Of a DNA stretch of 63,969 bases, positions 291 to 49,793 are shown piece by piece. The stretch is from contig CM059432.1 of assembly GCA_030390025.1 (NCBI GenBank), forward strand, positions 17,300,032-17,364,000, written 5' to 3'. The first letter of the stretch is position 1; each line of letters starts with the position of its first letter. The notes beneath the pieces were generated by a model. The model had not been told where the DNA came from. It saw only the letters and a list, made by a program, of their open reading frames with translations, and made no database searches. The position numbers and the translations under genes are program-made. The stretch is from Squalus acanthias. Taxonomy: Eukaryota.

Positions 291-1239
291 GATTTATAAT
301 CAGAAGCTCTTTAATTTATGCACACCCCCAAAAACATCGGAGCTGAATTCAAGATCAGCTCCCCACTCCACTTATCATTTTAGTGACCACTGACTGAATT
401 CAATTATCGTGCTCTTTCTCTCAATGCCATCATCAAATTATTAAGATTCCAAGGGAGTCCAGAGAGAAGTTCCAACAGCCCAATAAGTAAATGTCTCCTA
501 CAGTGCACTCCTGTTAACTGCAGAATTACTGTCGTACAAAAACGTATTCCTTGTTGAGTGTATACACTCAAGAGGAGTAAGAGATCCACAGCAACTTCAT
601 AGTACAGAAATTGCAGTCATTATTTTAGAAAATGGAGCTTTTAATTCAAAATGATAAGAAAGTTTAAGGTTAATTTAAGTGTTTATTGTTCCCCATTGTT
701 TTTCCTTATATCCTGGAAATTCTGTGAGCGATGTTATCATATGAACACCTAACACAAATTATTTCAAACTGCCTCCAATAAAATAGTGGTGAGAGAAGTT
801 TGATACATTAAGTGTTCATTCGGTAGCAGCACTCATTTCCAGGCTAACAGTTTTTTTTCCTCACGTGCCTATGTCGAAATTTATTTAACCTTCTCACTTG
901 CAGATTCAGCTGCATTGATACGATATTAATTTTGAAAGAGCTAATCATTGACAAAATGGCCCTGAAGTTGCAGTCGGTATAATGGCAAACTGTCAGAGTT
1001 CAAATCATTCCGCCTTTGAAACTGACCGCAACTTCGGGATTGCGAGATCCTTGTGTGGCGCGTACTTCGGGGCCAGCAGCGGATGCCTTCGCTTCGCTGC
1101 TAACCACAAAGTCAATGCCAACATTTTTAACTCCAGGGCAAAGTTTTGACTGCATTGTGGTCAGTGTTATTAAAGTCATAATCCTGTTAAATCTGCAGGA
1201 TCAAACAACTGTTTAAGTAGTGCACTGTGCTTAAACAAA

Positions 1240-4200
1240 AGGGCATTCTGGAGGGGGAGGGTGAACAGCCAGTTGTCGTGGTGCATATAGGTACCAACGA
1301 CATAGGTAAAAAACGGGATGAGGTCCTAAAAGCTGAATATAGGGAGTTAGGAGGTAAATTAAAAATTAGGACCTCAAAGGTAGTAATCCCAGGATTGCTA
1401 CCAGTGCCACGTGCTAGTCAGAGTAGAAATAGAAGGATATTTCAGATGAATACGTGGCTAGAGGAATGGTGCAAGGGGGAGGGATTCAAATTCTTGGGAC
1501 ATTGGAACCGGTTCTGGGGGAGGTGGGACGAGTACAAACTGGACGGTTTGCACCTGGGCGGGACCGGGACCGATGTCCTAGGGGGAGTGTTTGCTAGTGC
1601 TGTTGGGGAGGGTTAAACTAAAATGGCAGGGGGTTGGGAACCTGTGCAGGGAGACAGAGGAAAGGGAAGCAAGGATAGAAACAAAAGACAGGAAGGAGAA
1701 AAGCAAAAGTGGAAGGCAGAGAAATCAAGGGTGTAAATCAAAGAGGGCTACAGTAAATAATAATTCTAAAAGGACTAAGAGTGTCAAAAAAACAAGCCTG
1801 GAGGCTTTGTGTCTTAATGCGAGGAGCATTCGTAATAAGGTGAATGAATTAGCTGCGCAAATAGATGTAAACGGATATGATATAATTGGGATTATGGAGA
1901 CATGGCTCCAGGGTGACCAAGGCTGGGAATTCAACATCTAGGGGTATTCAATATTCGGGAAGGACAGGCAAAAAGGAAAAGGAGGTGGGGTAGCATTGCT
2001 GGTTAAAGAGGAGATTAACACAATAGTAAGGAAGGATATTAGCTCTGATGATGTGGAATCTGTATGGGTAGAGCTGAGAAATACCTAGGGGCAGAAAAAG
2101 TTAGTGGGAGTTGTATACAGACCCCCAAAAAGTAATGCTGAGGTTGGGGATGGCATTAAACGGGAAATTAGAGACGCGTGCAATAAGGGCACAGCAGTTA
2201 TCATGGGTGACTTTAATCTACATATAGATTGGGCTAACCAAATTAGTAACAATACTGTGGAAGAGGAATTCCTAGAGTGTATACGGGATGGTTTCCTGGA
2301 CCAATATGTCGAGGAACCAACTAGAGATCAGGCCATCTTAGATTGGGTATTATGTAATGAGAAAGGATTAATTAGCAATCTTGTTGTGCGAGGCCCCTTG
2401 GGGAGGAGCGATCATAATATGATAGAATTCTTCATTAAGATGGAGAGTGAAGTAGTTGACTCCAAGACTAGGGTCCTGAATTTAAATAAAGGAAACTACG
2501 ATGGTATGAGGCGCGAGTTGGCTAGGATGGATTGGGGAGCATTACTTAAAGGGTTGATGAAGGATAGGCAATGGCAAACATTTAAAGATCGCATAGATGA
2601 ACTACAGAATTTGTTCATCCCTGTTTGGCGTAAAAATAAAACAAAAAAGGTGACTCAACTGTGGCTAACAAGGGAAATTAGGGATAGCATAAGATCCAAG
2701 GAGAGGACATATAAATTGGCCAGAAAAAGCAGCAAACCTGAGGATTGGGAGCAGTTTAGGATTCAGCAAAGGAGGACAAAGGGATTAATTAAGAGGGGGA
2801 AAATAGAATATAAGAGTAAGCTTTCAGGGAACATAAAAACTGACTGTAAAAGCTTCTATAGATAGAAAAGATAGAAGAGAAAAAGATTGGTGAAGTCAAG
2901 CGTAGGTCCCTTGCAGTCAGAATCAGGGGAATTTATAATGGGGAACAAAGAAATGGCAGACCAATTAAATACATACTTTAGTTCTGTCTTCACAAAGGAG
3001 GACACAAATAACCTCCCAGAGATGTTGGGGAACATAGAGTCGAATGAGAGGGAGGAATTGAAGGAAATCAGTGGTAGAGAAAAAACAGGGAATTATAGAC
3101 CGGTAAGCCTGACATCGGTAGTGGGGAAATTGCTAGAGTCCATTATATAAGATGTAATAGCAGAGCACTTGGAAAACAGTGACAGGATCGGACAAAGTCA
3201 ACATGGATTTACAAAAGGTAAATCATGCTTGACTAATCTACTGGAATTTTTTGAGGATGTAACTGGTAGAACAGATAAGGGAGAACCAGTGGATGTGGTG
3301 TATTTGGACTTTCAGAAAGCTTTCGATAAGGTCCTGCATAAGAGATTAGCGTGCAAAGTTAAAGCACATGGGATTGGGCGTAAGGTACTGACTTGGATAG
3401 AGAACTGGTTGGCAGACAGGAAGCAAAGAGTTGGAATAAATGGGTCTTTTTCCGAGTGGCAGGCAGTGACTAGTGGGGTACCGCAGGGATCGGTGCTAGG
3501 ACCCCAGCTATTCACAATATATATAAATGATCTAGACGAGGGAACTAGATGTAATATCTCCAAGTTTGCAGACGACACAAAGCTGGATGGGCGTGTGTGC
3601 TGTGAGGAGGATGCAGAGAAACTCCAGTATGATTTGGACAGGTTGGGTGATTGGGCAGATGCATGACAGATGCAGTATAATGTGGATAAATGCGAGGTTA
3701 TCCACTTTGGTGGCAAAAACAGGAAGACAGATTATTATCTGAACGGCAATAGATTGGGAAAAGGGGAAGTGCAACGAGACCTGGGTGTCCTTGTGCACCA
3801 GTCGTTGAAGGTAAACATGCAGGTGCAGCAGGCGGTTAAGAAGGCAAATGGTATGTTGGCAAGGAGCAAGGATGTCTTGCTGCAATTGTACAGGGCCTTG
3901 GTGAGACCACACCTTGAGTATTGTGTGTAGTTTTGGTCGCCTTATCTGAGGAAGGATGTTCTTGCCATGGAGGGAGTGCAGCGAAGATTCACCAGACTGA
4001 TACCTGGGATGGCAGGAATGACGTATGAAGAGAGATTGGGTCGATTAGGCTTATATTCGCTAGAGTTTAAAAGAATGAGAGGGGATCCCATTGAAACTTA
4101 TAACATTCTAACAGGATTGGACAGACTAGATGCAGGAAGGATGTTCCCGATGGCGGGGGAGTCCAGAACCAGAGGTCACAGTCTAAAGATAAGGGGTAAG

Positions 4201-4470
4201 CCATTTAGGACTGAGATGAGGAGGAATTTCTTCACCCAGAGAGTGGTGAAACTGTGGAATTCTCTACCACAGAAGGCAGTTGAGGCCAATTCATTAAATA
4301 TATTCAAGAAGGAGATAGATATATTTCTTAAGGTTAAAGGGATCAAGGGATATGGGGAGAAAGCAGGGACAGGATACTGAATTTGGATGATCAACTATGA
4401 TCTCATTAAATGGCGGAACAGGCTCGAGGGGCCGAATGGCCTACTCCTGCTCCTATCTTCTATGTTTCTA
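1240..4470 (+). mobile_element. CR1 LINE (family A), 5'-truncated: ORF1 SGNH-esterase C-half plus APE endonuclease-RT ORF2, pseudogenised
   Basis: VVHIGTND...DGLHL esterase motifs; NARSIRNK, YRPP, MGDFN, SDH (APE); QGSVLGP, KFADD (RT); stop codons; ~0.2 kb internal deletion at ~3071; 3' tail ttctatgtttcta. Confidence 0.95.
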
Positions 4471-4779
4471 AATGAACAGGAGTGTTCCCAGCCCATGTGA
4501 GCATGTGATTGCCACATATTATGTTGAATGCATCATTATGAATTCATCAGATGCTAAACAGATCCTCACACTTGTGCTGAAGCGTGTCTATTTTTACAAA
4601 TTACAAAAATTTGTGTGGTTTCTTTCCTCCCCTCCTGAAGGAACTGACTCGTGCTGGGGGAAGTTGGCACGGTGCCAGTCACTCTCTAGAACCTTCTCAA
4701 ATGGCAATTTTTTTTGTTATGAAACTAGACAGTGAGTATCAGCAACCTTTTCAAACATGGGGGGTGGGTGGGGGGAATG

Positions 4780-4965
4780 ATATCACAGCTGTGCCGAATC
4801 CTGTCCTCACCTATTGTCCACACCCACTTTAGCAGGAGTAAATGAATAGCAGTCAGGAGCAGGAATCCTAGCTAATTCTTGAGGCCAAATGTAGCGCCCT
4901 AGAGCTGTGCCAACTGAGATCAGCTAACTCCGCACAGTCCAGGGATTAAACCTGGGAGCTTCCTC
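4780..4965 (-). mobile_element. Old tRNA-derived SINE fragment
   Basis: Minus strand cccaggtttaatccctgg (B-box-like) followed by gagttagctgatctcag. Confidence 0.4.
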
Positions 4966-5005
4966 GTTTATATATTTTAGCTCCAACCTAAAGAAAGAAC
5001 TTGCA

Positions 5006-8000
5006 TTTAGGGAGCTAGGTTGGAAGCTGAGAGCCAGTACAAACCATGTTGTAATTTCTGGTTTGTTGCCGGTGCCACGTGCTAGCGAGTTGAGGAACAG
5101 GGAGAGAGTGCAGATAAACACGTGGCTGCAGGGATGGTGTAGGGGGGAGGGTTTCAGTTATGTGGATAATTGGAGCACATTCTGGGGAAGGTGGGACCTG
5201 TACAAACAGGACGGTTTGCACCTGAACCAGAGGGGCACCAATATCCTGGGAGGGAAATTTGCTACGGCTCTTCGGGGGGGGTTTAAACTAATTTGTCAGG
5301 GGGATGGGAAAAAGGGCTGTAGTCCACGAGCCAGTGGTGAGTGTAGGGAGGTACTGAGGAGGGTATCAAGGTCGCGGGAATGTACCGGCAGACAGGAAGA
5401 TGGCTTGAAGTGTGTCTACTTCAATGCAAGGAGCATCCGGAATAAGGTAGGAGAACTTGGAGCGTGGATTGGTACTTGGGACTACGATGTGGTGGCCATT
5501 ACGGAGACATGGTTAGAACAGGGACAGGAATGGTTGTTGGAAGTTCCGGGGTATAGATGTTTCAGTAAGAGTAGGGAAGGTGGTAAGAAAGGTGGAGGAG
5601 TAGCATTGTTAATCAAGGATAGTTCAACAGCGGCAGAAAGGCAGTTCGAGGGGGATCTGCCGTCTGAGGTAATATGGGCTGAAGTTAGAAATAGGAAAGG
5701 AGCGGTCACGTTGTTAGGAGTTTTCTACAGGCCCCCAAATAGTAATAGAGATGTGGAGGAAGAAATTGCAAAGCAGATTATGAATAGGTGTGGAGGTCAC
5801 AGAGTAGTTGTCATGGGTGACTTCAACTTTCCAAATATTGATTGGAACCTTTATAGGTCAAACAGTTCGGATGGGATAGTTTTTGCACAGTGTGTGCAGG
5901 AGGGTTTCCTGACACAATATGTGGATAGGCCGACAAGAGGTGGGGCCACGTTGGATTTGGTACTGGGTAATGAACCGGGCCAAGTGTTTGATTTGTATGT
6001 GGGAGAGCACTTTGGAGATAGTGACCACAATTCGGTAACTTTCACTATTGCAATGGAGAGGGATAGGGCCATACGGCAGGGCAGGGTTTATAATTGGGGG
6101 AGGGGTAATTATGATGCGATTAGGCAAGAATTAGGGAGTATAAGATGGGAACAGAAACTATCAGGGAAAGGCACAAACGAAAAGTGGAGCTTTTTCATGG
6201 AGCAATTACTGCGTGTCCTTGATAGGTATGTCCCTGTCAGGCAGGGAGGAAATGGCCGAGTGAGAGAACCATGGTTCACAAAAGAGGTTGAATGTCTAGT
6301 CAAGAGGAAAAAGGAAGCGTATGTAAGGATGAGAAAACAAGGTTCAGTTGGGTCGATTGAGGGGTACAAGGTAGCAAGGAATGAGCTAAAAAAAGAGCTT
6401 AGGAGAGCTAGGAGGGGGCATGAGAAGTCCTTGGCGGGTCGGATCAAGAAAAACCCCAAGGCTTTTTACTCTTATGTGAGAAATAAAAGAATGACCAGGG
6501 TGAAGGTAGGGCCGGTCAAGGACAGTAGTGGGAACTTGTGCATGGAGTCAGAAGAGATAGGAGAGGTGATGAATGAATACTTTTCGTCAGTGTTCACCGA
6601 GGAGAGGGGCCATGTTCTTGAGGATGAGAGTGTGATAAAGGTGGATAGGCTGGAGGTGGTAGATGTTCTGAGGGAAGATGTTTTAGCAATTTTGAAGAAC
6701 CTGAGGGTCGATAAGTCCCCTGGGCCAGATGGGATATATCCTAGGATTCTTTGGGAGGCAAGGGAGGAGATTGCAGAGCCTCTGGCTTTGATCTTTGGGT
6801 CCTCACTGTCCACGGGGATGGTGCCAGAGGACTGGAGAGTGGCGAATGTTGTTCCTCTCTTCAAGAAAGGAAATAGGAATTACCCTGGTAATTATAGGCC
6901 GGTTAGTCTTACTTCGGTGGTTGGTAAGATAATGGAAAAGGTCCTGAGGGATAGGATTTATGACCATTTGGAAAGGGGCAACTTAATCAGGGATAGTCAA
7001 CACGGATTCGTGAAGGGTAAGTCTTGCCTAACAAATTTGATTGAATTCTTTGAGGAGGTAACTAAGTGTGTAGATGAAGGTAGAGCAGTTGATGTCGTAT
7101 ACATGGATTTTAGTAAGGCGTTTGATAAGGTTCCCCATAGTCGTCTCATGAAGAAAGTAAGGAGTTGTGGGATAGAGGGAAATTTGGCCGATTGGATAAG
7201 TAACTGGCTATCTCATAGAAGGCAGAGGGTGGTGGTGGATGGAACATTTTCGGACTGGAGACCAGTTACCAGCGGTGTGCCACAGGGGTCGGTGCTGGGT
7301 CCTCTGCTGTTTGTGATTTTTATCAATGACTTGGAGGAGGGGACTGAAGGGTGGATCAGTAAATTTGCTGATGACACCAAGATTGGTGGAGTAGTGGATG
7401 AGGTGGAGGGCAGTTGTAGGCTGCAAAGAGACATTGATAGGATGCAGAGCTGGGCCGAAAAATGGCAGATGGAATTTAACCCTGATAAGTGCGAGGTGAT
7501 TCATTTTGGTAGGGCAAATTTGAATAAGGATTACAGGGTCAACGGCAGGGTTCTGAGGAACGTGGAGGAGCAGAGGGATCTGGGGGTTCATATCCACAGA
7601 TCTCTGAAGGTTGCCACTCAAGTGGATAGAGCAGTAAAGAAGGCCTATGGTGTGTTGGCGTTTATTAACAGAGGGTTTGAGTTTAAGAACCGTGAGGTTA
7701 TGCTGCAACTGTACAGAACCTTGGTGAGACCACATTTGGAATATTGTGTGCAGTTCTGGTCACCTCACTATAGGAAGGACGTGGAAGCATTGGAAAGAGT
7801 GCAAAGGAGATTTACCAGGATGCTGCCTGGTTTGGGGGGGAGGTCTTATGAGGAAAGATTGAGGGAGTTGGGGCTTTTCTCTTTAGAGCGGAGGAGGATG
7901 AGAGGCGACTTAATAGAGGTTTATAAGATGATGAGGGGGATAGATAGAGTGGATGTTCAGAGACTATTTCCTCGGGTAGAGGCAGCTGTTACAAGGGGGC

Positions 8001-8272
8001 ATAACTATAAGGTGCATGGGGGGAGATATAGAAGGGATGTCCGAGGTAGATTCTTTACTCAGAGAGTGGTTGGGGTGTGGAATGGACTGCCTGCTGTGAT
8101 AGTGGAGTCGGACACTTTAGGAACTTTCAAGCGGTTATTGGATAAGCACATGGAGCACACCAGAGTGATAGGGAGTGTGATAGCTTGATCTTGGTCTCGG
8201 ACAATGCTCGGCACAACATCGAGGGCCGAAGGGCCTGTACTGTGCTGTACTGTTCTATGTATCTATGTATCT
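5006..8272 (+). mobile_element. CR1 LINE (family B), young, 5'-truncated inside ORF1, inserted into a SINE/L2-type tail
   Basis: Intact coding region; 3' tail ttctatgtatctatg; flanks rejoin as aaagaacttgcatt|tatagcaccttgcacaacctcag. Confidence 0.95.
5063..8188 (+). CDS. CR1 ORF1 esterase C-terminus fused in frame to an intact ORF2 (APE endonuclease + reverse transcriptase), 1041 aa open frame with no native AUG start
   Basis: DGLHLN (ORF1), then GGFKLICQG linker, FNARSIRNK, ITETW, YRPP, MGDFN, SDHN, KSPGPDG, QHGF, DFSKAFD, QGSVLGP, KFADD; no stops. Confidence 0.9.
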   Translation: MLPVPRASELRNRERVQINTWLQGWCRGEGFSYVDNWSTFWGRWDLYKQDGLHLNQRGTNILGGKFATALRGGFKLICQGDGKKGCSPRASGECREVLRRVSRSRECTGRQEDGLKCVYFNARSIRNKVGELGAWIGTWDYDVVAITETWLEQGQEWLLEVPGYRCFSKSREGGKKGGGVALLIKDSSTAAERQFEGDLPSEVIWAEVRNRKGAVTLLGVFYRPPNSNRDVEEEIAKQIMNRCGGHRVVVMGDFNFPNIDWNLYRSNSSDGIVFAQCVQEGFLTQYVDRPTRGGATLDLVLGNEPGQVFDLYVGEHFGDSDHNSVTFTIAMERDRAIRQGRVYNWGRGNYDAIRQELGSIRWEQKLSGKGTNEKWSFFMEQLLRVLDRYVPVRQGGNGRVREPWFTKEVECLVKRKKEAYVRMRKQGSVGSIEGYKVARNELKKELRRARRGHEKSLAGRIKKNPKAFYSYVRNKRMTRVKVGPVKDSSGNLCMESEEIGEVMNEYFSSVFTEERGHVLEDESVIKVDRLEVVDVLREDVLAILKNLRVDKSPGPDGIYPRILWEAREEIAEPLALIFGSSLSTGMVPEDWRVANVVPLFKKGNRNYPGNYRPVSLTSVVGKIMEKVLRDRIYDHLERGNLIRDSQHGFVKGKSCLTNLIEFFEEVTKCVDEGRAVDVVYMDFSKAFDKVPHSRLMKKVRSCGIEGNLADWISNWLSHRRQRVVVDGTFSDWRPVTSGVPQGSVLGPLLFVIFINDLEEGTEGWISKFADDTKIGGVVDEVEGSCRLQRDIDRMQSWAEKWQMEFNPDKCEVIHFGRANLNKDYRVNGRVLRNVEEQRDLGVHIHRSLKVATQVDRAVKKAYGVLAFINRGFEFKNREVMLQLYRTLVRPHLEYCVQFWSPHYRKDVEALERVQRRFTRMLPGLGGRSYEERLRELGLFSLERRRMRGDLIEVYKMMRGIDRVDVQRLFPRVEAAVTRGHNYKVHGGRYRRDVRGRFFTQRVVGVWNGLPAVIVESDTLGTFKRLLDKHMEHTRVIGSVIA

Positions 8273-25250: not shown

Positions 25251-25514
25251 CATAACACAAGTGGAGCTAGCCATTCAATAAAGATTAAACAGACAAAGTC
25301 ATAACAACAATTCACAATAGAAAGTAAAACTGTGGCCGATAATAAACTAAATGGTGAGCTGGAACTTTGGATGTAAAAGGCTCCCTCCCAGCAACACTAC
25401 ATATAACAAGTCCACCACCCTAGCTACAAGGAATGATACAACTGTGTAAAAAACACATAATAATGATCTTATCTATTGGCGATTTTGTTTGAACTGTTAA
25501 TACTGGAATTGTTA

Positions 25515-27637
25515 ACATAGAAGCACAGAAGATAGGAGCAGGAGTAGGCCATTCGGCCCCTCGAGCCTGCTCCGCCATTCGATGAGATCATGGCTGATCA
25601 TCCAAACTCAGTACCCTGTACCTGCCTTCTCCCCATATCCCTTGATACCTTTAGCTTTAAGAAATATATCTAACTCATTCTTGAATATATTTAATGACTT
25701 GGCCTCAACTACCTTCTGTGGTAGAGAATTCCACAGGTTCACCACTCTCTGGGTGAAGAAATTCTTCCTCATTTCTGTCCTAAATGGCTTACCCCTTATC
25801 CTTAGACTATGACCCCTGGTTCTGGACTCTCCGACCATCGGGAACATTCTTCCTGCATCTAGTTTGTCCAGACCTGTCAGAATTTTATATGTTTCGATGA
25901 GATCCCCTCTCATTCTTCTATACTCCAGTGAGTATAAGCCCAATCGACCCAATCTCTCCTCATATGTCATTCCTGCCATCCCAGGTATCAGCCTTGTGAA
26001 TCTTCGCTGAACTCCTTCCATGGCAAGAACATCCTTCCTCAGATAAGGCGACCAAAACTGCACACAGTACTCAAGGTGTGGTCTCACCAAGGCCCTGTAC
26101 AACTGCAACAGGACATCCCTGTTCCTATACTCAAACCCTTTCGCTATGAAGGCCAACATACCATTTGCCTTCTTCACCGCCTGCTGCACCTGCATGCTTA
26201 CCTTCAGCGACTGGTGCACAAGGACACCCAGGTCTCGTTGCACTTCCCCTTCTCCCAATCTATTGCCATTCAGATAATAGTCTGCCTTTCTGTTTTTGAC
26301 ACCAAAGTGGATAACCTCGCATTTATCCACGTTATATTGCATCTGCCACGCTTCTGCCCACTCACCCAACCTGTCCAAATCATCCTGGAGTTTCTCGGTA
26401 TCCTCGCAGCACACACACCCACCCAGCTTTGTGTCATCTGCAAACTTGGAGATATTAAATTTAGTTCCCTTATCTAGATCATTAATGTATATTGTGAATA
26501 GCTGGGGTCCAAGGACCGATCCCTGCGGTACCCCACTAGTCACTGCCTGCCACTCGGAAAAAGACCCATTAATTCCTACTCTCTGCTTTCTGTCCGCCAA
26601 CCAGTTCTCTATCCAAGTCAATACCTTGCCCCCAGTCCCATGTGCCTTAACTTTACATGCTAATCTCTTATGCGGGACCTTATCGAAAGCCTTTTGAACG
26701 TCAAAATACACCACATCTACTGGTTCTCCCTTATCTATTTTCCCAGTTACATCCTCAAAAAATTCCAGTAGATTAGTCAAGCACAATTTACCTTTTGTAA
26801 ATCCATGTTGACTTTGTCCGATCCTGTCACTGTTTTTCAAGTGCTCAGCTATTACATCCTTTATAATGGACTCTAGCATTTTCCCCACTACCGATGTCAG
26901 GCTTACCGGTCTGTAATTCCCCGCTTTCTCTCTACCACCCTTTTTGAATAGTGGGGTAACATTAGCTACCCTCCAATCCATGGGTACAGTTCCAGATTCC
27001 ATCGAATGTTGGAAGATGATCAGCAAGGCATCAATATTTCTAGGGCCACTTCCTTAAGTACCCTAGCATGTAGATTATCATGCCCTGGGGATTTATCGGC
27101 CTTCAATCCCGTCAATTTTCCTAACACCATTTCCCTGCAAATACTGATTTCTTTCAGTTCCTCCCTTTCATCAGACCGTATGTTCTCCAACATCTGTGGG
27201 AGGTTATTTGTGTCCTCCTTTGTGAAGACAGAACCAAAATATGCATTTAATTGGTCTGCCATTTCTTTGTTCCCCATTATAACTTGCCCCGCTTCTGACT
27301 GCAAGGGACCTACACTTGATTTCACTAATCTTTTTCTCTTCACATATGTATAAAAGCTCTTACAGTCAGTTTTTATGTTCCCTGCAAGCTTACTTTCATA
27401 TTCTATTTTCCCCTTCTTAATTAATCCCTTTGTCCTCCTTTGTTGAATCCTAAACTGCTCCCAATCCTCAGGGTTACCGCTTTTTCTGGCCAATTTATAT
27501 GCCCTCTCCTTGGATCTTATGCTATCCCTAATTTCCCTTGTTAGCCACGGTTGAGTCACCCTTTTTGTTTTATTCTTATGCCACACTGGGATGAACAAAT
27601 TCTGTAGTTCATCCATGCAGTCTTTGAATGTTTGCCA
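25515..27637 (-). mobile_element. CR1 LINE (family A) 3' 2.1 kb; RT with one frameshift near 27020
   Basis: ORFs 25608-27026 and 27020-27616 with full RT motifs. Confidence 0.95.
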
Positions 27638-28251: not shown

Positions 28252-30027
28252 AGCGAGTTGAGGAACAGGGAGAGAGTGCAGATAAACACGTGGCTGCAGG
28301 GATGGTGTAGGGGGGAGGGTTTCAGTTATGTGGATAATTGGAGCGCATTCTGGGGAAGGTGGGACCTGTACAAACAGGACGGTTTGCACCTGAACCAGAG
28401 GGGCACCAATATCCTGGGTTGGAAATTTGCTACGGCTCTTCGGGGGGGTTTAAACTAATTTGTCAGGGGGGTGGGAAAAAGGGCTGTAGTCCAGGAGCCA
28501 GTGGTGAGTGTAGGGAGGTACTGAGGAGGGTATCAAGGTCGCAGGAATGTACCGGCAGACAGGAAGGTGGCTTGAAGTGTGTCTACTTCAATGCAAGGAG
28601 CATCCGGAATAAGGTAGGAGAACTTGGAGCGTGGATTGGTACTTGGAACTACGATGTGGTGGCCATTACGGAGACATGGTTAGAACAGGGACAGGAATGG
28701 TTGTTGGAAGTTCCGGGGTATAGATGTTTCAGTAAGAGTAGGGAAGTTGGTAAGAAAGGTGGAGGAGTAGCATTGTTAATCAAGGATTGCCTAACAAATT
28801 TGATTGAATTCTTTGAGGAGGTAACTAAGTGTGTAGATGAAGGTAGAGCAGTTGATGTCGTATACATGGATTTTAGTAAGGCGTTTGATAAGGTTCCCCA
28901 TGGTCGGCTCATGAAGAAAGTAAGGAGTTGTGGGATAGAGGGAAATTTGGCCGATTGGATAAGTAACTGGCTATCTCATAGAAGGCAGAGGGTGGTGGTG
29001 GATGGAACATTTTCGGACTGGAGACCAGTTACCAGCGGTGTGCCACAGGGGTCGGTGCTGGGTCCTCTGCTGTTTGTGATTTTTATCAATGACTTGGAGG
29101 AGGGGACTGAAGGGTGGATCAGTAAATTTGCTGATGACACCAAGATTGGTGGAGTAGTGGATGAGGTGGAGGGCTGTTGTAAGCTGCAAAGAGACATTGA
29201 TAGGATGCTGAGCTGGGCCGAAAAATGGCAGATGGAATTTAACCCTGATAAGTGCGAGGTGATTCATTTTGGTAGGGCAAATTTGAATAAGGATTACAGG
29301 GTCAACGGCAGGGTTCTGAGGAACGTGGAGGAACAGAGAGATCTGGGGGTTCATATCCACAGATCTCTGAAGGTTGCCACTCAAGTGGATAGAGCAGTAA
29401 AGAAGGCCTATGGTGTGTTAGCGTTTATTAACAAGGGGTTTGAGTTTAAGAACCGTGAGGTTATGCTACAACTGTACAGGACCTTAGTGAGACCACATTT
29501 GGAATATTGTGTGCAGTTCTGGTCACCTCACTATAGGAAGGACGTGGAAGCATTGGAAAGAGTGCAAAGGAGATTTACCAGGATGCTGCCTGGTTTGGGG
29601 GGGAGGTCTTATGAGGAAAGATTGAGGGAGTTAGGGCTTTTCTCTTTAGAGCGGAGGAGGATGAGAGGCGACTTAATAGAGGTTTATAAGATGATGAGGG
29701 GGATAGATAGAGTGGATGTTCAGAGACTATTTCCTCGGGTGGAGGTAGCTGTTACAAGGGGGCATAACTATAAGGTGCATGGGGGGAGATATAGAAGGGA
29801 TGTCCGAGGTAGATTCTTTACTCAGAGTGGTTGGGGTGTGGAATGGACTGCCTGCTGTGATAGTGGAGTTGGACACTTTAGGAACTTTCAAGCGGTTATT
29901 GGATAAGCACATGGAGCACACCAGAATGATAGGGAGTGGGATAGCTTGATCTTGGTTTCGGACAATGCTCGGCACAACATCGAGGGCCGAAGGGCCTGTA
30001 CTGTGCTGTACTGTTCTATGTTCTATG
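28252..30027 (+). mobile_element. CR1 LINE (family B) copy with native ORF1 stop and a ~1.4 kb in-frame internal deletion
   Basis: Near-identical to 5083-8260; junction atcaaggat|tgcctaac joins the equivalents of 5620 and 7025. Confidence 0.95.
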
Positions 30028-30162
30028 TAAAAGCAAAATACTGTGGATGCTGGAAATTGGAAATAAAAACAGAAAATGCTGAACACACTCAGCAGGTCAG
30101 GCAGCATCTGTGGAGTGAGAAACAGAGTTAACGTTTCAGGTCGATGACCCTTCGTCAGAACT
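30028..30162 (-). mobile_element. Penelope-like element terminal repeat fragment
   Basis: Minus strand: hammerhead core, then ctccacagatgctgcctgacctgctgagt...cagcattttctgtttttatttc, typical of vertebrate PLE termini. Confidence 0.75.
30126..30162 (-). ncRNA. Minimal type I hammerhead ribozyme (Penelope-associated)
   Basis: AGTT CTGACGA a GGGTC atc GACCT GAAAC GTT AACT: conserved CUGANGA/GAAA core, stem I AGUU/AACU, stem II hairpin, palindromic AACGUU stem III. Confidence 0.75.
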
Positions 30163-35361: not shown

Positions 35362-35839
35362 GTGTAGCAGTTTGATTTTTTAAAGAATAAATGTAGCTAC
35401 CTTTTAGTTGCCACAACACTCCTGATACTAAATAACGTTGAATTACAGAATGAGACTGTTGGACTATGTGAAACTGACAAGAAAGCACTGAAACTCCACT
35501 AACCTACAGCTGCAATTCATTACTGATGATCCATTTAAATAACGTCCCTGGAGCTGGCTTCCTGGTGTTTTACACCAGCTCTCCCTGTCACTGTTTCCTC
35601 TGGGCACTAAAGTAGGTGGCGACAATCAATTTCGCAGATTGGGCGGCCAGTGAGCGTTGCACACTCACTCACATCACGATCCACCTGGCATTGAGGCTCC
35701 CGGCGATAACTGTTAGTGCCGGCACTGTGGGGGCTGGGATTTGGCGTGTGCCGTTGGATTCGCCTTGCCCCAGCGATAATGCTCTGGCGCTAACGGGAGG
35801 CGCTAAGGTACCGAATTTCCCCCCCCCCCATTACGCTTA

Positions 35840-37868
35840 TACTCCAATCCTTTTGTAATAAAGGCTCACATACCATTTGCTTTCCTAATTGCTCGCTGTA
35901 CCTGCATGTTAACTTTCAGTGATTCGTGTACAAGGACACCCAGGTCCCTCTGAACACCAACATTTCCCAATCTCTCTCCATTTAAAAAATACTCTGCTTT
36001 TCTATTTTTCCTACCAAAGTGGATAACTTCACATTTCTCCACATTATATTCCATCTGCCATGTTCTTGCCCATTCACTTAACCTGTCTATATCCCTATGC
36101 AGCCTTTTTGCAACCTCCTCACAACTTACTTTCCCACTTAGCTTTGTATCACCAGTAAACATGGATACATTATACTCAGTCCCCTCAACTAAGTCATTGA
36201 TATAGATTGTAAATAGCTGAGGCCCAAGCACTGATCCTTCTGGTACCCCACTAGTTACAGCCTGCCAACCCAAAAATGACCCGTTTATTCCTACTCTCTG
36301 TTTTCTGTCCGTTCACCAATCCTTAATCCATGCTAGTATATTACCCTCAATCCCATGAGCCCTAATTTTGTGTAATAACCTCTTGTGCGACACCTTATCA
36401 AATGCTTTCAGAAAATCCAAATACACCACATCCATTGGTTCCCGCTTATCTACCATGCTAGTTACAACCTCAAAAAACTCCATTAGATTTTGAAACACGA
36501 TTTCCCTTTCATAAATCCGTGTTGATGCTGTCGAATCATATTATGATTTTCTAAAGGCCCTGTTCCCACATCCCTAATAATGGATTATAGCATTTTCCCT
36601 ACTACTGATGACAGGCTAACTGGTCTATAGTTCCCTGCTTTCTCTCTCCCTCCTTTCTTTAATAGCGGGGTTACATTTGCTACCTTCCAATCTGCTGGGA
36701 CCGTTCTGGAATCTAGGGAATTCTGCACGATCAAAACCAATGCACCCACGATCTCTGTAGCCACGTCTTTTAAAACCCGAGGATGTAGGCCATCAGGTCC
36801 AGGAGATTTGTTGGCTTTTAGTCCTATTAATTTCTCCAGTACTATTTCTTCACAACTGCTAATGTCTTTAAGTTCCTCATTCTCTCTAGACCCTTGGTTC
36901 CCCACTATTTCTGGAATGTTTTTTGTGTCTTTTTTCGTGAAACAAAGTATTTGTTTAATGTCTCTGCCATTTCCTTATTCCCCATCATAATTTCTCCTGT
37001 CTCTGCCTGAAAGGGACCCATGTTTGCTTTTGCTAATCTCTTCTCTTTTTACATACGTATAAAAGCTTTTACAATCTGTTTTTATGTCTCTTGCTAATTT
37101 ACTCTCATATTCTATTTTTCACTCTCTTTATCAAGTTCTTGGTCCTCCTTTGCTGAATTCTAAAATCCTCCCAGTCCTCAGGCTTACTACTCTTTTTGGC
37201 AACATTATAAGACTCTTCCTTTAATCTAATACTATCTTTAACTTCTCTTGTTAGCCATGGTTGGACCATTTTTCCCGTGGTGTTTTTATTCCTTAAGGGA
37301 ATGTATTTTCTTGTGAATTATGAATTATTTCTTTAAATGTTTGCCATTGCTTATCTACTATCATATATTTAATCTAGTTTCCCAACCTATTTTAGCCAAC
37401 TTGCCTCTCATACCTACATAGTTTGCTTTGTTTAGATTTAAGACTCTAGTTTAGGACTTAACTAAATCACTCTCAAACTCAACATAACATTCTATCATAT
37501 TATGATCACTGCTCCACAGAAGCTCCTTTACTACAAGGTTATTAATGAACCCTGTCTCTTTGCAAAATGCTAGATCTAAAATAGCCTGTTCTCTAGTTGG
37601 TTCCTCGACATACTGATCAAGAAAACTATCTTGAATGCATTCCATGAACTCGTCCTCTGCATTTTTTTTATTCGTTCCTGGGATGTGGGCGTCGCTGGCA
37701 AAACCAGCATTTATTGCCCATCCCTAATTGCCCTTGGGAAGGTGGTGGTGAGCCACCTTCTTGAACCGCTGCAGTGCATGTGGTGAAGGCACTCCCACAG
37801 TGTTGTTAGTGAGGGGAGTTACTGCAATTTGGTTTGCCCAGTCTATATGAAAATTAAAGTCCCCATTA
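35840..37868 (-). mobile_element. Older CR1 ORF2 fragment, interrupted at ~37660-37820 by another LINE tail
   Basis: ORFs 35866-36273, 36313-36498, 36585-36905 and 37451-37645 with APE/RT motifs. Confidence 0.9.
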
Positions 37869-38469
37869 ACAAGCCTTTAATTGGCATTCTCATCAGTCAG
37901 CATGAAAATAATGCCAACTCATTAATGCAAGTAAGTTATTTCTTGCAGGACGGAAAACTTGGATCAGCACCAAAAATGGCAATTGACTATGCTGATGTTT
38001 TTCTCCTGGTTCTTCACATCTTTTAATGCCAACCTCCACTGACACTGGCAGTGGAATCATGCCGCCAGAACTCAAGGTATGAATCCATCTCCTGTCCTGT
38101 CCATATCCTGCCTTTTGTCTGATTTTATATTTGAAAAAAAGATCAAAACCCTAAATGTGAACCCTGAAGGATGAAAAATTGGTAACAGAGGTGAAGAGGC
38201 GGCTCTCGCACTCATCCTAGTAGCCAAATTCAGGAATCACCCCCTTTCTTGATTAGTGGCAGTAAATGCAGTTGAGATCCAAGTGTAGAAGGGGATAGAA
38301 TACTTTAAAGGCGTGACTATTATACTCAACCAAAGCAAAAAAACCTTTGTACCAAAACATTGAAATCTTTGTATATCACAAACTGGTAAGAGTTCATTTG
38401 TATTTACAACCAAAGTGTAAAATATTTTGGTAAGGTCCTTAATATTATCCAATGTATATGGTTTCTCAC

Positions 38470-39310
38470 AGATTCATAGATTCATAGAAAATTACAGCAC
38501 AGAGGAGGCCATTCGGCCCGTCGTGCCTGTGCTGGCTCTTTGAAAGAGAAGTTGTGCTCAGTCCCACATCCCCGCTTTTTGTCCGTAACCCTGCATGTTG
38601 CTCATCCTCAAGTAAGTGCCCAACTTTGTTTTAAAACTATTCATGGAATCAGCTTCCACCATCTTTTCAGGTAGAGCATTCCAGATCCCGACAACACTCT
38701 GAGTAAAAAAATTTCTCCTCATCTTCCCTCTAGATCTTTTTCCAATGATTTTGAATCTATGACCTATAGTTATTGACCCACTCGCCAGAGGGAATATTGT
38801 TTCCCTATTTACTCTATCAAAGCCTCTCATCATCTTGAAAACCTCTATTAAGTCACCTCTTTACTCTACTCCTCGAGTGCCAGGCTGTTTTCCCGGCACC
38901 CCGCTCCCCGGGAGGGCTCTGGTGCGCACAGCACTAGGCCCCTCCCCTTTAACCAGGGAAGGAGGACTGCAATGACACGGCACTACATGCTGCCGTGCGT
39001 GGCGCAGTTGCACATAGCACTGCGAAATTCACTGGTAGCGCCCCAAGAAGGAGGGGGAGCGCTTTCCAGTAGTGCCCCGGTGACGTAGTGCCCCAAATTG
39101 TTCCCCCCATATATACAACATCTACTGCACCACCTTGATCAACCTTCTCTGTTACCTTGTCAAAGAATTCAATCAAGTTCATCAGACGATTTACCTTTAA
39201 CAAATCCATGCTGGCTCTCCATGATTAACCCATCCCTTTCCAAATGAAAGTTTATTTTGTCCCTGATAATGGTTTCCAATAACTTCCCCACCACTGACTG
39301 GCCTGTAGTT
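38470..39310 (-). mobile_element. CR1 fragments interrupted by a MITE piece (~38875-39110)
   Basis: ORF 38558-38833; SQHGFVKGKS fragment; the MITE piece matches the 43490-43827 region. Confidence 0.8.
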
Positions 39311-40413
39311 TCATAAGAACATAAGAAATAGGAGCAGGAGTAGACCATTCGGCCCCTCGAGCCTGCCCCGCCATTCAATAAGATCATGGCTGATCTGATC
39401 TTGGCCTCAACTCCACTTTCCCGCCTGTTCCCCATAACCCTTGACTCCCCTATAGCTCAAATATTTGTCTATCTCTGCCTTGAATATATTCACTGACTCA
39501 GCCTCCACAGCTCTCTGGGGTAGAGAATTCCAAAGATTCACGACCCTCTGAAAGAAGAAATTCCTCCTCATCTCTGTCTTAAATGGGTGACCCCTTATTC
39601 TGAAACTATGCCCCCAAGTTCTAGATTCCCCCACGAGGGGAAACATCCTCTCAGCATCTACCCTGTCAAGCCCCCTCAGAATCTTATATGTTTCAATAAG
39701 ATCCCCTCTCATTCTTCTAAACTCCAATGAGTATAGGCCCAACCTGCTCAACCTTTCCTCAAAAGACAACCCTTTCATCTCAGGAATCAACCTAGTGAAC
39801 CTTCTTTGAACTGCCTCCAATGCAAGTATATCCCTCCTTAAATAAGGAGACCAAAACTGTACGCAGTACTCCAAGTGTGGTCTCTCCAACAGTTGTAGCA
39901 AGACTTTTATACTCCATCCCCACTTGCAATAAAGGCCAACATTCCATTTGCCTTCCTAATTACTTGTTGTACCTGCATGCAAACTTTTTGTGTTTCATGT
40001 ACGAGGACACCCAGATCCTTCTGTACCGCAGCATTCTGTAGTCTCTCTCCATTTAAATAATATTTTGCTTTTCTATTCTTCCTACCAAAGTGGATAACCT
40101 CACATTTTCCCACATTATACTCCATCTGTCAAATTTTTGCCCACTCACTTAATCCCTTTGCAAACTATTTGTACTCCTCACAACTTGCTTTCCCATCTAT
40201 CTTTGTATCGTCAGCAAATTTGGCTACAGTACACTTGATCCCTTCATCCAATTCATTAATATAGATTGTAAATAGTTGAGGCCCCAGCACTGATCCCTGT
40301 GGCACCCCACTAGTTACAGTTTGTCAACCTGAAAATTACCCATTTATCCCAACTCTCTGTTTTCTGTTAGTTAGCCAATCCTCTATCCATGCTAATATAT
40401 TACCCCCAACACA
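39311..40413 (-). mobile_element. CR1 LINE 3' fragment
   Basis: ORFs 39407-39901 and 39907-40125; cataagaacataag tail. Confidence 0.92.
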
Positions 40414-41024: not shown

Positions 41025-42340
41025 TAATGGCTATCAGATCATACCAATTTATTTCTATTTGTGCCATCAATTCATCTATCTTGTTACGAATGCTGCGTGC
41101 ATCCAGATACAGAGCCTTTAATTCTGTCTTTTTACCATTTTTCCCTACTCTGACCCTATTTGATGGTGCACTCTTATGTTTGTATGCTCTGTCCCTTCCT
41201 GTCACACTCTGGTTATCGCTACCCTGCACTATTGCCTTGTCCTTTCTCTTCAACTTTCTAAATTTCACCTCACCTGAACCTTCCCCCCACTATTTCGTTT
41301 AAGAACATAAGAACATAAGAAATAGGAGCAGGAGTAGGCCAATCGGCCCTTCGAGCCTGCTCCGCCATTCAATAAGATCATGGCTGATCTGATCCTCACC
41401 TCAAATCTAAAGAACACAAGAAGTAGGAGCAGGACCTGGCCACTCAGCTCTATCTACAGTCCTAGTTATTCGATTCGCCAGGACACTGGTCCCAGCATGG
41501 TTCAAGTGAAGCCCGTCCCAACGGAACAGCTCCCTCTTTTCCCAGTACGGTTGCCAGTGCCCCATGAATCGAAACCCATTTCTCCCACACCAATCTTTGA
41601 GCTACGCATTCAACTCTCTGATCTTATTGACCCTATGCCAATTCGCTCGTGGCTCAGGTTGTAATCCAGAGATTATTACCTTTGTGGTTCTGTTTTTTAA
41701 ATTTAGCCTCTAGCTGCTCATACTCCCTCAGCAGAACCTCTTTATTAGTCTTACCTATGTCGTTCATACCTACGTGGTCCACGACAACTGGATCCTCCCC
41801 TTCCCACTCCAAGTTACTCTCCAACCCCGAGGAGATGTCCTTAACCCTGGCACCGGGTAGGCAACACAGCCTTCGGGACTCACGCTCTCGGCTGCAGAGA
41901 ACAGTATCTATCCCCTAACTATACTGTCCCCTACCACTACTACATTCCTTTTTGCTTCCCCAACTTGAATGGTCCCCTGTACCATGGTGCTGTGGTCAGC
42001 TTGCTCATCCTCCCTGCAGTCCCTGCTCTCATCCACAGAGGCTGCAAGAACATCGTACCTGTTGGACAAGTGCAAGGGCTGAGGCTCCTCCAATGCTACC
42101 TTCTGGATCCCCATACCTGCCTCACTCGTAGTCACACCCTCCTGTCCCTGACCACGGCCCAAATTTGAAGTATTTAACCTAAGGGGTGTGACTGCCTCCT
42201 GGAACAAAGTGCCCAGGTAACCCTCCCCCTCCCTGATGCATCGCAGTGTCTGAAGCTCGGACTCCAGCTCATCAACTCTGAGCCGAAGTTCCTCGAGCTG
42301 CAAACACTTACTGCAGATGTGGTTGCTGTGGATCAGACCC
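41025..42340 (-). mobile_element. CR1 (family C) 5' region: ORF1 zinc finger/leucine zipper + esterase and start of ORF2, with a short CR1 tail inserted at the ORF junction (~41301-41447)
   Basis: CSKCLQLEELRLRVDELESEL; VVVVGDSIVRG; GLHLNHAG; LYLDARSIRNK. Confidence 0.88.
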
Positions 42341-46827: not shown

Positions 46828-47060
46828 TGTGGCGGATCGCCACCTAAATGGGCGCAATCCACTTTTCCGTCCGTGGACAATAAATCGGGCACCTTGCCTT
46901 TAAGGCGCATGCTGCCTTTAAGGCAGGAAAAAAGGAGTGGGCGTGGCCTCTGGGTTTTTGCAGAGAAATGTTAGCAGCCATTTTACCAGAGATGTGATTA
47001 AAAGCTATGTGTTCCACATATTGACTCGGCCTCAATTCGTGGTTCGCGGCAGCCACAACA
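46828..47060 (+). repeat. 5' LTR
   Basis: Direct repeat of 49561-49793, 5 mismatches by manual comparison. Confidence 0.95.
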
Positions 47061-47061
47061 T

Positions 47062-47074
47062 TGGTGACCCCGTC
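47062..47074 (+). other. Primer-binding site complementary to the tRNA-Trp 3' end
   Basis: TGGTGACCCCG immediately after the 5' LTR. Confidence 0.85.
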
Positions 47075-47100
47075 GCTCAGAACGTATTCCGAGCACTGCA

Positions 47101-49540
47101 ATGGCGGACACGAACGCAGTTTCCGTGTAACTGCCGGAGTTTTGGGAAAACCAGCCCGAAGCCTGGTTTCTCCAAGCTGAGTCCCGATTCCGGCTGCAAC
47201 GCATCACCACAGATGGGACGAAGTACGACTACCTCGTCACATCACTCGGTAGCTCCACAGTTACGAAGGTCTGGACAGCGCTGCAGAACCCACCAGAGGG
47301 GAACAAGTATGCACATCTTAAGGCCGCGCTCTTTAAAAAATTTATGGCCTCGACATACCAGCGAAACTGCCACCTCCTCGACTTTCCAGGCCTCACCGTC
47401 AGACCTCCTCTCCCACATGCTCTCCCTCACCGACGAGAGCCCACCCGGATGCCTCTTCCGCACGCTGTTCATCCGCCAGCTACCTCTCAGCATCCGCCCA
47501 GCGATCGTGGCGTCCGGCCTCATGGACCTGGAAGCCCTGGCCGATGAGGCCGACAAGCTGCTGTCCGCTCACTCCAGCCGCGACGTCACTCCGGACCTGG
47601 CAGCCACTGCCTGGGCGCGCCCCTCACCGGCCACCACGCGGCCACAAGGCCCAGCCACCGGGCTCACGGGGCCTTCGCGCCCCACTAACCCGGGCCACTG
47701 TTACTACCACGCACGGTTCGGCGCCAGGGCACAACGGTGCACACCTCCCTGCACTTTCAAGTCTGCCCCCGTACCAGACCCCGCGATGGCCGTGGACCAC
47801 GCGGGCTCCCTGCTGTACGTCACGGATGACAAAACCGGCCGCCGGTTCCTGTGCGACACTGGAGCTCAGCACAGCATCATCCTGGCCTCCTCCCTCGACA
47901 TCCAAAAGGGCAAACGAGGACCGGCGCTGGCTGCTGCTAACGGCTCGGACATATGGATGTACGGCACCCGCACAGTCACCCTCGACCTCGCTGGTCGCCG
48001 CTACCGATGGGAGTTCATCACTGCCAAGGTGCTCTCCCCTCTCATCGGCGTGGATTTTCTGTGCGCCCACGGCCTACTGGTAGACATCCCTCGACACCGC
48101 CTCATGGACATGAACACCATGTCCCCCATCCTGGGCGCCATGGCCCCCCATCAACCCGCCGACATGGCGTCACAGTGCCACGCCCGGGCCACGGATGACT
48201 ACTCGGCACTCCTGGCCGAATTCCCGGCCCTTACCATTCCGACCTTCTCCGCGGAGGCCGCCAAACACGGGGTGGAACACTTCATCCCCACCACAGGCCC
48301 CCCAGTGTACGCCCACGCCCGCAGGCTGGACCCGGCCAAACTGGAGATCGCGCGAACCGAGTTTGCCACCATGGAACAGCTTGGCATCATCCGCCGCTCC
48401 AACAGTCCCTGGGCCTCCCCACTCCACATCGCCCCCAAACCAGGCGGAGGTTGGTGCCCCTGCGGGGATTACCGCCGCCTCAACGACGCCACCACCCCTC
48501 ATCGGTACCCCGTGCCGCACATCCAGGACTTCTCGGCTAGACTGGCCGGCTGCTCAGTCTTTTCCAAGGTCGACCTGGTGCGCGGCTACCACCAAGTCCC
48601 CGTCCACCCCGCGGACGTCCCCAAGACGGCCGTAATCACCCCCTTCGGCCTTTTCGAGTTCCTGCGGATACCCTTCGGCCTCAAAAACGCGGCCCAGGCA
48701 TTCCAACGACTCATGGACTCGGTCCTTCGGGACCTGAAGTTCCTGTTCGTCTACCTGGATGACATCCTGGTAGCCAGTTCCTCCAAGCAGGAACACCTCG
48801 AACACCTTCGCATCCTGTTCGGGCGCCTCAGCGACCACGGGCTCATCCTCAGCACAGCCAAATGCCAGTTCGGCCTGGACAAGATCGACTTCCTCGACCA
48901 CAATCACGTGGACATTGTCAGGCTCCTGCCGCCGTCGCAAGGCCACACGCACTTGCTGACGATCGTTGACCGCACCACGCGCTGGCCCGAGGCAATTCCA
49001 CTGACCTCTACCACCACCGCCGACATCGCCAGAGCCTTCGTCAGCACCTGGGTCTCATGGTTCGGCATCCCCTCTGACATGACGTCGGACAGAGGTCCGC
49101 AATTTACCTCTGAACTCTGGACCGCCGTCGCACGCAATCTCGGGGTGACCATTCACCGCACCACAGCGTACCACCCCCAAGCCAACGGACTGTGTGAGCG
49201 GTGCCACAGATCCTTGAAGGCATCTCTTCAAGCCAGCCTCCAGGACGGCGCCTGGACCGACCGACTCCCGTGGGTCCTCCTCGGCCTGCGTACCGCGGTT
49301 AAAGAAGACCTCCACGCATCGGCAGCAGAGCTCGTGTACGGCCAGCCACTGCGCGTACCCGGCGAGTTCCTGCCCACCGCCACGACACCCTGGTCAGCCG
49401 ACCAGCAACGTGGCCGACCTGCCCTCAAGCCAGTTCACCCGGCTGCTCCACGCCCGGCTGTTCCACGTCCACCGGCGTCCTACAAGAGCCGCTCCGGCTG
49501 GCCCATCAGACCGCCGCACCATCTCGTCCACACCTCCTAA
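47101..49540 (+). pseudogene. gag-pol: Gag (early stop, frameshift), protease, RT, integrase core; RNase H and integrase zinc finger deleted
   Basis: LPEFWENQPEAWFLQAE; FLCDTGA; SPWASP, DYRRLN, PFGLKNA, YLDD; HVDIV...TIVDRTTRWPEA, SDRGPQF, HPQANGLCER. Confidence 0.92.
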
Positions 49541-49560
49541 GCAGATTCTGGGGGGAGCTG

Positions 49561-49793
49561 TGTGGCGGATTGCCACCTAAACGGGCGCAATCCACTTTTC
49601 CGTCTGTGGACAATAAATCGGGCACCTTGCCTTTAAGGCGCATGCTGCCTTTAAGGCAGGAAAAAAGGAGTGGGCGTGGCCTCTGGGTTTTTGCAGAGAA
49701 ATGTTAGCAGCCATTTTACCAGAGATGTGATTAAAAGCCATGTGTTCCACATATTGACTCGGCCTCAATTCGTGCTTCGCGGCAGCCACAACA
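49561..49793 (+). repeat. 3' LTR
   Basis: Preceded by the polypurine tract ggggggag; followed by TSD GGCC. Confidence 0.95.

Follow-up and report, generated by a model that had tools for sequence, protein, structure and literature searches.

A CR1 copy with overlapping ORF1 and ORF2

The window, the whole 63,969-nt stretch of Squalus acanthias DNA that we analyzed, contains a CR1-type LINE copy with the following features.

28252-30029 (+): CR1-type LINE copy
28252..28458 (+): 3' remnant of a family B ORF1, 5'-truncated, read from the sequence (end of the SGNH/GDSL esterase, ...DGLHLN...ALRGGLN*)
28446..28452 (+): G_GGT_TTA, a further X_XXY_YYZ heptamer read from the sequence, one codon 5' of T_TTA_AAC
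28449..28455 (+): slippery heptamer T_TTA_AAC in the register of ORF1 codons GGT TTA AAC, from sequence and conservation
28456..28458 (+): ORF1 stop TAA, 23 codons past the esterase His; reads Leu in the -1 frame
28456..28465 (+): 10-nt spacer, the stop plus 7 nt
28466..28475 (+): conserved linear G-rich block GGGGG-NN-GGG, a candidate stimulator
28338..29906 (+): -1 frame, ORF2, with linker, start of the APE endonuclease, internal deletion near 28787 and RT; non-functional copy
28590..28679 (+): endonuclease motifs NARS (from 28590) and ITETW (from 28665), 5' of any in-frame ATG
29990..30029 (+): 3' end; short repeats of the TTCTATG type, without poly(A)

As the initial annotation had proposed, T_TTA_AAC stands in the X_XXY_YYZ register directly before the ORF1 stop, and the -1 frame that begins FKLICQ is ORF2, which is open and continues to NARS and ITETW. 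A run of seven G (28442-28448) directly precedes the heptamer. The G-rich block had been placed about 8 nt downstream; that spacing holds for CAG, whereas the G5 run itself starts after 10 nt, at 28466. The upstream heptamer G_GGT_TTA is restricted to families A, B, D, and G and is not conserved.

The copy is dead, with a truncated ORF1, a 1.4-kb ORF2 deletion (28787 joins the equivalents of 5620 and 7024 in a second family B copy at 4.9-8.3 kb), and a late frameshift. Searches of the 3.7-Gb genome for family members showed that intact family B elements encode a 308-aa ORF1 with CxxC motifs, a coiled coil, and a GDSL esterase, followed by a -1 frame of 968 codons that encodes APE and RT. Pfam PF13472 (SGNH/GDSL esterase) scored above cut-off in ORF1 of the intact family B member L036 and of L143, and ORF2 was matched by the profiles PF03372 (APE endonuclease) and PF00078 (RT). 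Named ORF1 homologs of the element are from sharks and rays, and a short tandem repeat replaces poly(A) at the 3' end, as in CR1. We take the element to be a CR1 from its ORF1 homologs and general features rather than from an RT phylogeny against L2. Two CR1-type ORF1 proteins are labelled Pseudomonas aeruginosa (P0006) and Protopolystoma xenopodis (P0079), likely through vertebrate host contamination.

Three further ORF1/ORF2 junctions are present in the window.

5272..5312 (+): second family B junction; with G8 not G7, ORF2 and the ORF1 remnant share one frame (4928-8188)
1604..1645 (+): family A junction, short of one heptamer T here; TTTAAAC TAA is the family norm
41280..41460 (-): family C-like junction broken by an inserted CR1 3'-end fragment, which adjoins the TTTAAAC position

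The inserted fragment sits exactly in the C-like junction. Dense truncated CR1-like fragments of several families occupy both strands at 1221-4478, 25510-27637, 35836-40409, and elsewhere. The window also contains an LTR retrotransposon-like element (46828-49793) with 233-bp LTRs that are 97.9% alike and TG...CA ends; its 872-codon frame has gag-, protease-, RT-, and integrase-like stretches, labelled by eye.

The heptamer is conserved in place at the end of ORF1

TTTAAAC occurs 14 times in the window against 10.65 expected, a count no higher than chance would give. The non-random feature is its place. We compared 17 lineage representatives, nine from the S. acanthias genome and eight bird-type loci from metagenomes, excluding L191 for its damaged stop. 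TTA, AAC, and a stop were each found in 17/17 (TTA AAC TAR invariant), although the lineages are related and these are not 17 independent events. All three stops (TAA, TAG, and TGA) are used, depending on the lineage. The sole representative without the preceding T is L248, an old copy near family H, with C_TTA_AAC. Among 3248 other upstream in-frame positions of the 17 representatives, an in-frame X_XXY_YYZ was found at 13 and TTTAAAC at none.

A broader set of 182 ORF1 ends was gathered from loci found with junction-excluding queries and from 40 random 10-kb stretches, with a few loci counted twice. Exact TTTAAACTAR was found in 158 (127 in register, 15 fused, 16 in another frame); 21 others had one substitution, one had an indel, and two lacked it. 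The random stretches contributed three ORF1 ends. Family C was gathered with a protein query. Further families agree on the heptamer, and in one extra set 13 of 15 loci show it where expected or one codon-block away (in one of these it ends in AAA; of the other two loci, an insertion interrupts one and the other is unclear). Nine of 25 metagenome loci reach the junction; all nine have T TTA AAC, followed by TAG in eight. These loci are bird-type, the ORF1 end of L178 being identical to that of a penguin protein. No non-shark DNA relatives were found in viral contigs or in the genome contigs searched with alignment A1, and frog, reptile, and teleost groups are represented by protein ends only.

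The proposal that the heptamer would be kept in register across CR1 families was thus borne out where the last 24 ORF1 codons average 41% amino-acid identity across the 17 representatives. In 16/17 the codon before Leu (Gly, Ala, Asp, Thr, Ser, or Cys) has T at its wobble position, against a third-position T content of 22-23% in these elements. TTA makes up 3/25 of the Leu codons in family B ORF1 and 6/100 in one bird-type ORF2. Synonymous sites are therefore conserved across divergent lineages, as expected of a -1 frameshift site, and the constraint at the ORF1 end appears to act on nucleotides, not on protein. We interpret the junction, from its conservation, as a real and deeply conserved recoding-type signal.

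ORF2 has an open -1 frame and a variable start codon

Between the ORF1 stop and the first in-frame AUG or endonuclease motif, the -1 frame has no stops in 440 codons, and the other frames have 35 and 41. Given this open frame, the -1 frame appears to be translated from the junction onward. An open linker would also be expected if ORF2 were a separate protein, made by termination-reinitiation at or just past the ORF1 stop from an AUG or any other codon, with the conserved block serving reinitiation. Passages of PMC3708506 and PMC2881922 describe reinitiation in L1 and SART1, so far the answers to how a LINE translates ORF2 from a bicistronic RNA.

Start codons in the junctions differ by lineage. 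In four of the eight bird-type loci an in-frame AUG lies near the stop (TAG NN ATG), 2-5 nt past the stop start, and in family F (L338-L357) 10/20 copies have UAAUG in the ORF2 frame, both of which would suit reinitiation. The other 10 family F copies have TAA or TGA followed by AGT, without UAAUG, and most of them have no Met before the endonuclease motif. Family F consists of two sister sublineages that differ at the junction, one with UAAUG and one with no AUG. Elsewhere UAAUG was found in two C-like copies and was absent from the other lineages, so a conserved SART1-type stop-start is not present. The first in-frame AUG is at codon 16 in family C, 19 in E, 22 in L178, and 57 in D. Families A, B, G, and H have no in-frame AUG before the endonuclease motif, and their first AUG past the stop is out of frame; in family B the first in-frame Met is codon 166 past the slip site, with NARS at codon 47. 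The initial observation that ORF2 lacks an AUG before the endonuclease thus applies to these four families, but not to several others.

A conserved upstream AUG for ORF2, which the initial annotation had counted as evidence against frameshifting, was not found: the start codon varies while the heptamer stays. Reinitiation leaves the fixed wobble T, TTA, and AAC 5' of the stop unexplained, and it has no AUG to use, or one out of frame, in A, B, G, and H and in the sister half of family F. Passages of PMC1965478 report that L1 ORF2 tolerates loss of its AUG, so a missing AUG alone proves little. We also looked for upstream UGGGA. It is absent in six of the eight bird-type loci, and in shark families it mostly derives from Trp-Asp codons. 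UGGGA is the calicivirus-type reinitiation motif. Altogether we consider reinitiation an unlikely general route to ORF2, although it could coexist with frameshifting in lineages that have an AUG.

ORF1 protein ends and a possible protein constraint

The heptamer might instead be kept for the proteins, without any slip, if the C-terminal Leu-Asn of ORF1p and an F-K-L-x-x-x-G-x-G motif in the ORF2 linker fixed the nucleotides through their overlap. In alignment A1 neither L305 nor N306 varies, and dual coding is able to fix wobble positions. However, the -1-frame F-K precedes the ORF1 stop and would be translated solely if ribosomes enter the -1 frame there, and the remaining linker, 39 to 95 codons long, has no common sequence among lineages. 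We therefore regard this explanation as very improbable.

The ORF1 proteins themselves were surveyed for their ends. LN ends 61/106 ORF1 homologs (sharks, rays, frogs, and penguin among those named), most others being fragments. The residue before LN can have a T-ending codon in 60/61, versus 28/61 one position earlier, and E, Q, K, M, or W precedes LN in 1/61, versus 33/61 one place earlier. The C-terminus is covered by 113 of the 150 cluster representatives; of these 113, 51 have LN at the expected place, 36 have other ends nearby, 25 are extended, and one is cut.

Distant esterase ORF1 proteins without names end in Q-G-N (17/34 further proteins, protein only), an ending that is compatible with another slippery heptamer and also counts against the protein explanation. 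Q-G-N ends were seen among P0203, P0204, P0216, P0217, P0224, P0243, and P0297-P0314, others ending in K-N, L-N, or S-N. The Q-G-N ends would fit G_GGA_AAC, which we regard as a lead, and the set as a whole is compatible with G_GGA_AAC or A_AAA_AAC. Our searches found no DNA encoding the Q-G-N group; its nearest endonuclease-bearing locus, L373, has a -1 overlap and no slippery heptamer at the stop. At this locus (L373:584-2629), on a contig in a Sedimenticola MAG, an esterase-like ORF overlaps an APE endonuclease that lies in the -1 frame; it is probably a contaminating LINE of the host.

Length changes in the G-run and fused copies

The family B copy at 4928-8188 (+) has an uninterrupted ORF2, and its extra G (G8) fuses the ORF1 remnant to ORF2. 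It had been described as full-length, which is not the case, as ORF1 is cut at about 5006 in addition to the extra G. Thirty family B loci were selected on the endonuclease start, and the junction was present in 22: 20 with G7, one with G8, and one truncated at the junction. G7 is the family B norm.

G8 and G9 copies are scattered over a tree of 48 family B copies (a sample partly chosen with a G8 query), with eight changes as the fewest and at least three forced, and therefore reflect repeated homopolymer slips. Fused G8 copies as a single amplifying subfamily are unsupported, as this scatter gives no sign of an amplifying clade. Fused frames of 1238-1290 codons were also found in family G, where 12/12 fetched copies have one extra base before the heptamer. 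A search for longer naturally fused proteins gave two matches, neither of them informative.

G-run indels are frequent in families B, D, and G, and in some shark families CTAAY..CAG looks like a cramped splice acceptor, so ORF2 might be reached at the RNA level by splicing, by a subgenomic RNA, or by a base added when the polymerase slips on the G-run or T3A3. However, families C, E, and H and the bird-type loci lack a long G-run upstream, the AG of the acceptor-like motif varies and is too near the branch-like motif, and assembled contigs of three other sequencing runs, whose RNA origin is a guess, cross the family B junction with no gap or joint. We give this route hardly any weight.

A conserved linear G-rich block follows the junction

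Downstream of the heptamer, G is present in 15-16 of 16 representatives at +10..+14 (GGGGG-NN-GGG, after exactly 10 nt). The G-run of C-like families starts 2 nt earlier and covers the same positions. A conserved linear motif is thus present at the 9-11 nt spacing of arterivirus-type sites (PMC4937337). Contigs of another organism contain further CR1 families that match family B through the G block; the matching ends right after it, where summed alignment depth drops from some 6000-7500 to below 300.

Neither ViennaRNA nor a simple stem search revealed a conserved stem-loop or pseudoknot-like stem 5-9 nt downstream. Folding z ranged from -2.9 to +1.9, with family A alone below -1, and a search for a long-range duplex partner of the junction found none. 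A two-tier G-quadruplex is the lowest-energy fold in 6/16 representatives, family B not among them. The suggestion that the block is a stimulatory element thus stands as far as its conservation and fixed spacing go; the block forms no conserved stem or pseudoknot and so is not a classic structural stimulator. By analogy, it may be a protein-bound element. According to passages of PMC5009743, natural stimulators of the G-rich linear or G-quadruplex kind were anticipated in 2016, but none was known.

Proposed frameshift mechanism

The register, the synonymous-site conservation, and the open -1 frame support the original suggestion of an ORF1-ORF2 polyprotein, and ORF2 is quite probably reached by a -1 ribosomal frameshift at U_UUA_AAC. 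Termination would be the usual outcome and yield the 308-aa esterase ORF1p. A minority of ribosomes would slip back one base, with tRNA-Leu and tRNA-Asn moving from UUA AAC to UUU AAA and CUA read next, giving ...G-G-L-N-L-I-C-Q... and, in family B, a predicted fusion of about 1274 aa (308 + 968 - 2). The result would be a fixed ORF1p:ORF2p ratio, like that of Gag and Gag-Pol. The pause would likely come from the adjacent stop and the linear G5-NN-GGG block, which probably binds a protein or folds into a weak two-tier G-quadruplex instead of forming a pseudoknot.

Tandem slippage on U_UUA_AAC retains Leu-Asn. The expected main junction is thus G-G-L-N-L-I-C-Q (L-N|L-I) and not the GGLKLICQ or GGFKLICQ named initially. 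Genomic G8 fused copies encode G-G-F-K-L-I-C-Q, so such a peptide cannot prove frameshifting.

Against frameshifting we count the in-frame AUGs near the stop in several lineages, the lack of a conserved structure, and C_TTA_AAC in L248. Fused copies also recur without an amplifying clade, giving no sign that fusion is useful.

A wider version of the frameshift reading is possible, and we hold it with more doubt than confidence. Vertebrate CR1s from cartilaginous fish to birds would make a Gag-Pol-like fusion by -1 frameshifting, aided by a linear G motif 10 nt downstream that is bound by a protein (a host G-run binder or ORF1p) or forms a G-quadruplex, with no pseudoknot, and the mechanism would extend to distant esterase-ORF1 elements with G_GGA_AAC. 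According to the abstract of PMC13343379, CR1 dominates among the retrotransposons of most vertebrates. If frameshifting is true, these elements gain a retrovirus-like fusion and ratio control from a 30-nt signal. The N-terminus of CR1 ORF2p would be redefined, with the esterase joined to EN-RT, and ORF annotation corrected.

Comparison with known systems

The elements resemble CR1 subgroup 7 with its type IVB ORF1 (zinc finger/leucine zipper plus esterase), as described in passages of PMC4120745: both have CxxC motifs, a coiled coil, a GDSL esterase, APE and RT, and a 3' microsatellite tail. The passages of that paper and of the 2026 CR1 survey PMC13343379 contain no frameshift route (no match for "frameshift"), and CR1 has no match in the first 300,000 of 449,034 characters of the recoding text PMC5009743. 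The passages of the literature searched, including PMC5006619, gave no report of a CR1 frameshift; an earlier proposal is possible in the early chicken and turtle CR1 papers, supplements, or Repbase notes.

SART1 (UAAUG) and L1 (reinitiation) are likewise LINEs with a bicistronic RNA in which translation of ORF2 is coupled to that of ORF1, and UAAUG is also found in half of family F. In CR1, however, the AUG is not conserved and the slippery heptamer is conserved instead. Dictyostelium TRE5-A and TRE3-A, which are APE-type LINEs like CR1 but belong to another clade with another ORF1 type, require a -1 frameshift for ORF2, as stated in a review figure legend (PMC5911963); the term "frameshift" has no match in PMC3159450.

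U_UUA_AAC belongs to the heptamers on which mammalian ribosomes shift most readily, and coronavirus 1a/1b and retroviral -1 frameshifting share with CR1 this heptamer, its register, and a replicase in the -1 frame, according to passages of PMC5009743. CR1 differs from them in that neither a hairpin nor a pseudoknot is conserved 5-9 nt downstream and the stop comes directly after the heptamer. The layout resembles that of the arterivirus PRRSV. Its nsp2 -2/-1 frameshifting, stimulated by nsp1beta and PCBP, relies on a linear motif that is set off by a 10-nt spacer and has no obvious RNA structure, as described in passages of PMC4937337. Although the CR1 heptamer differs, its motif is G-rich and not C-rich, and its binding protein is hypothetical, both junctions combine a linear motif and a 10-nt spacer with no evident RNA structure.
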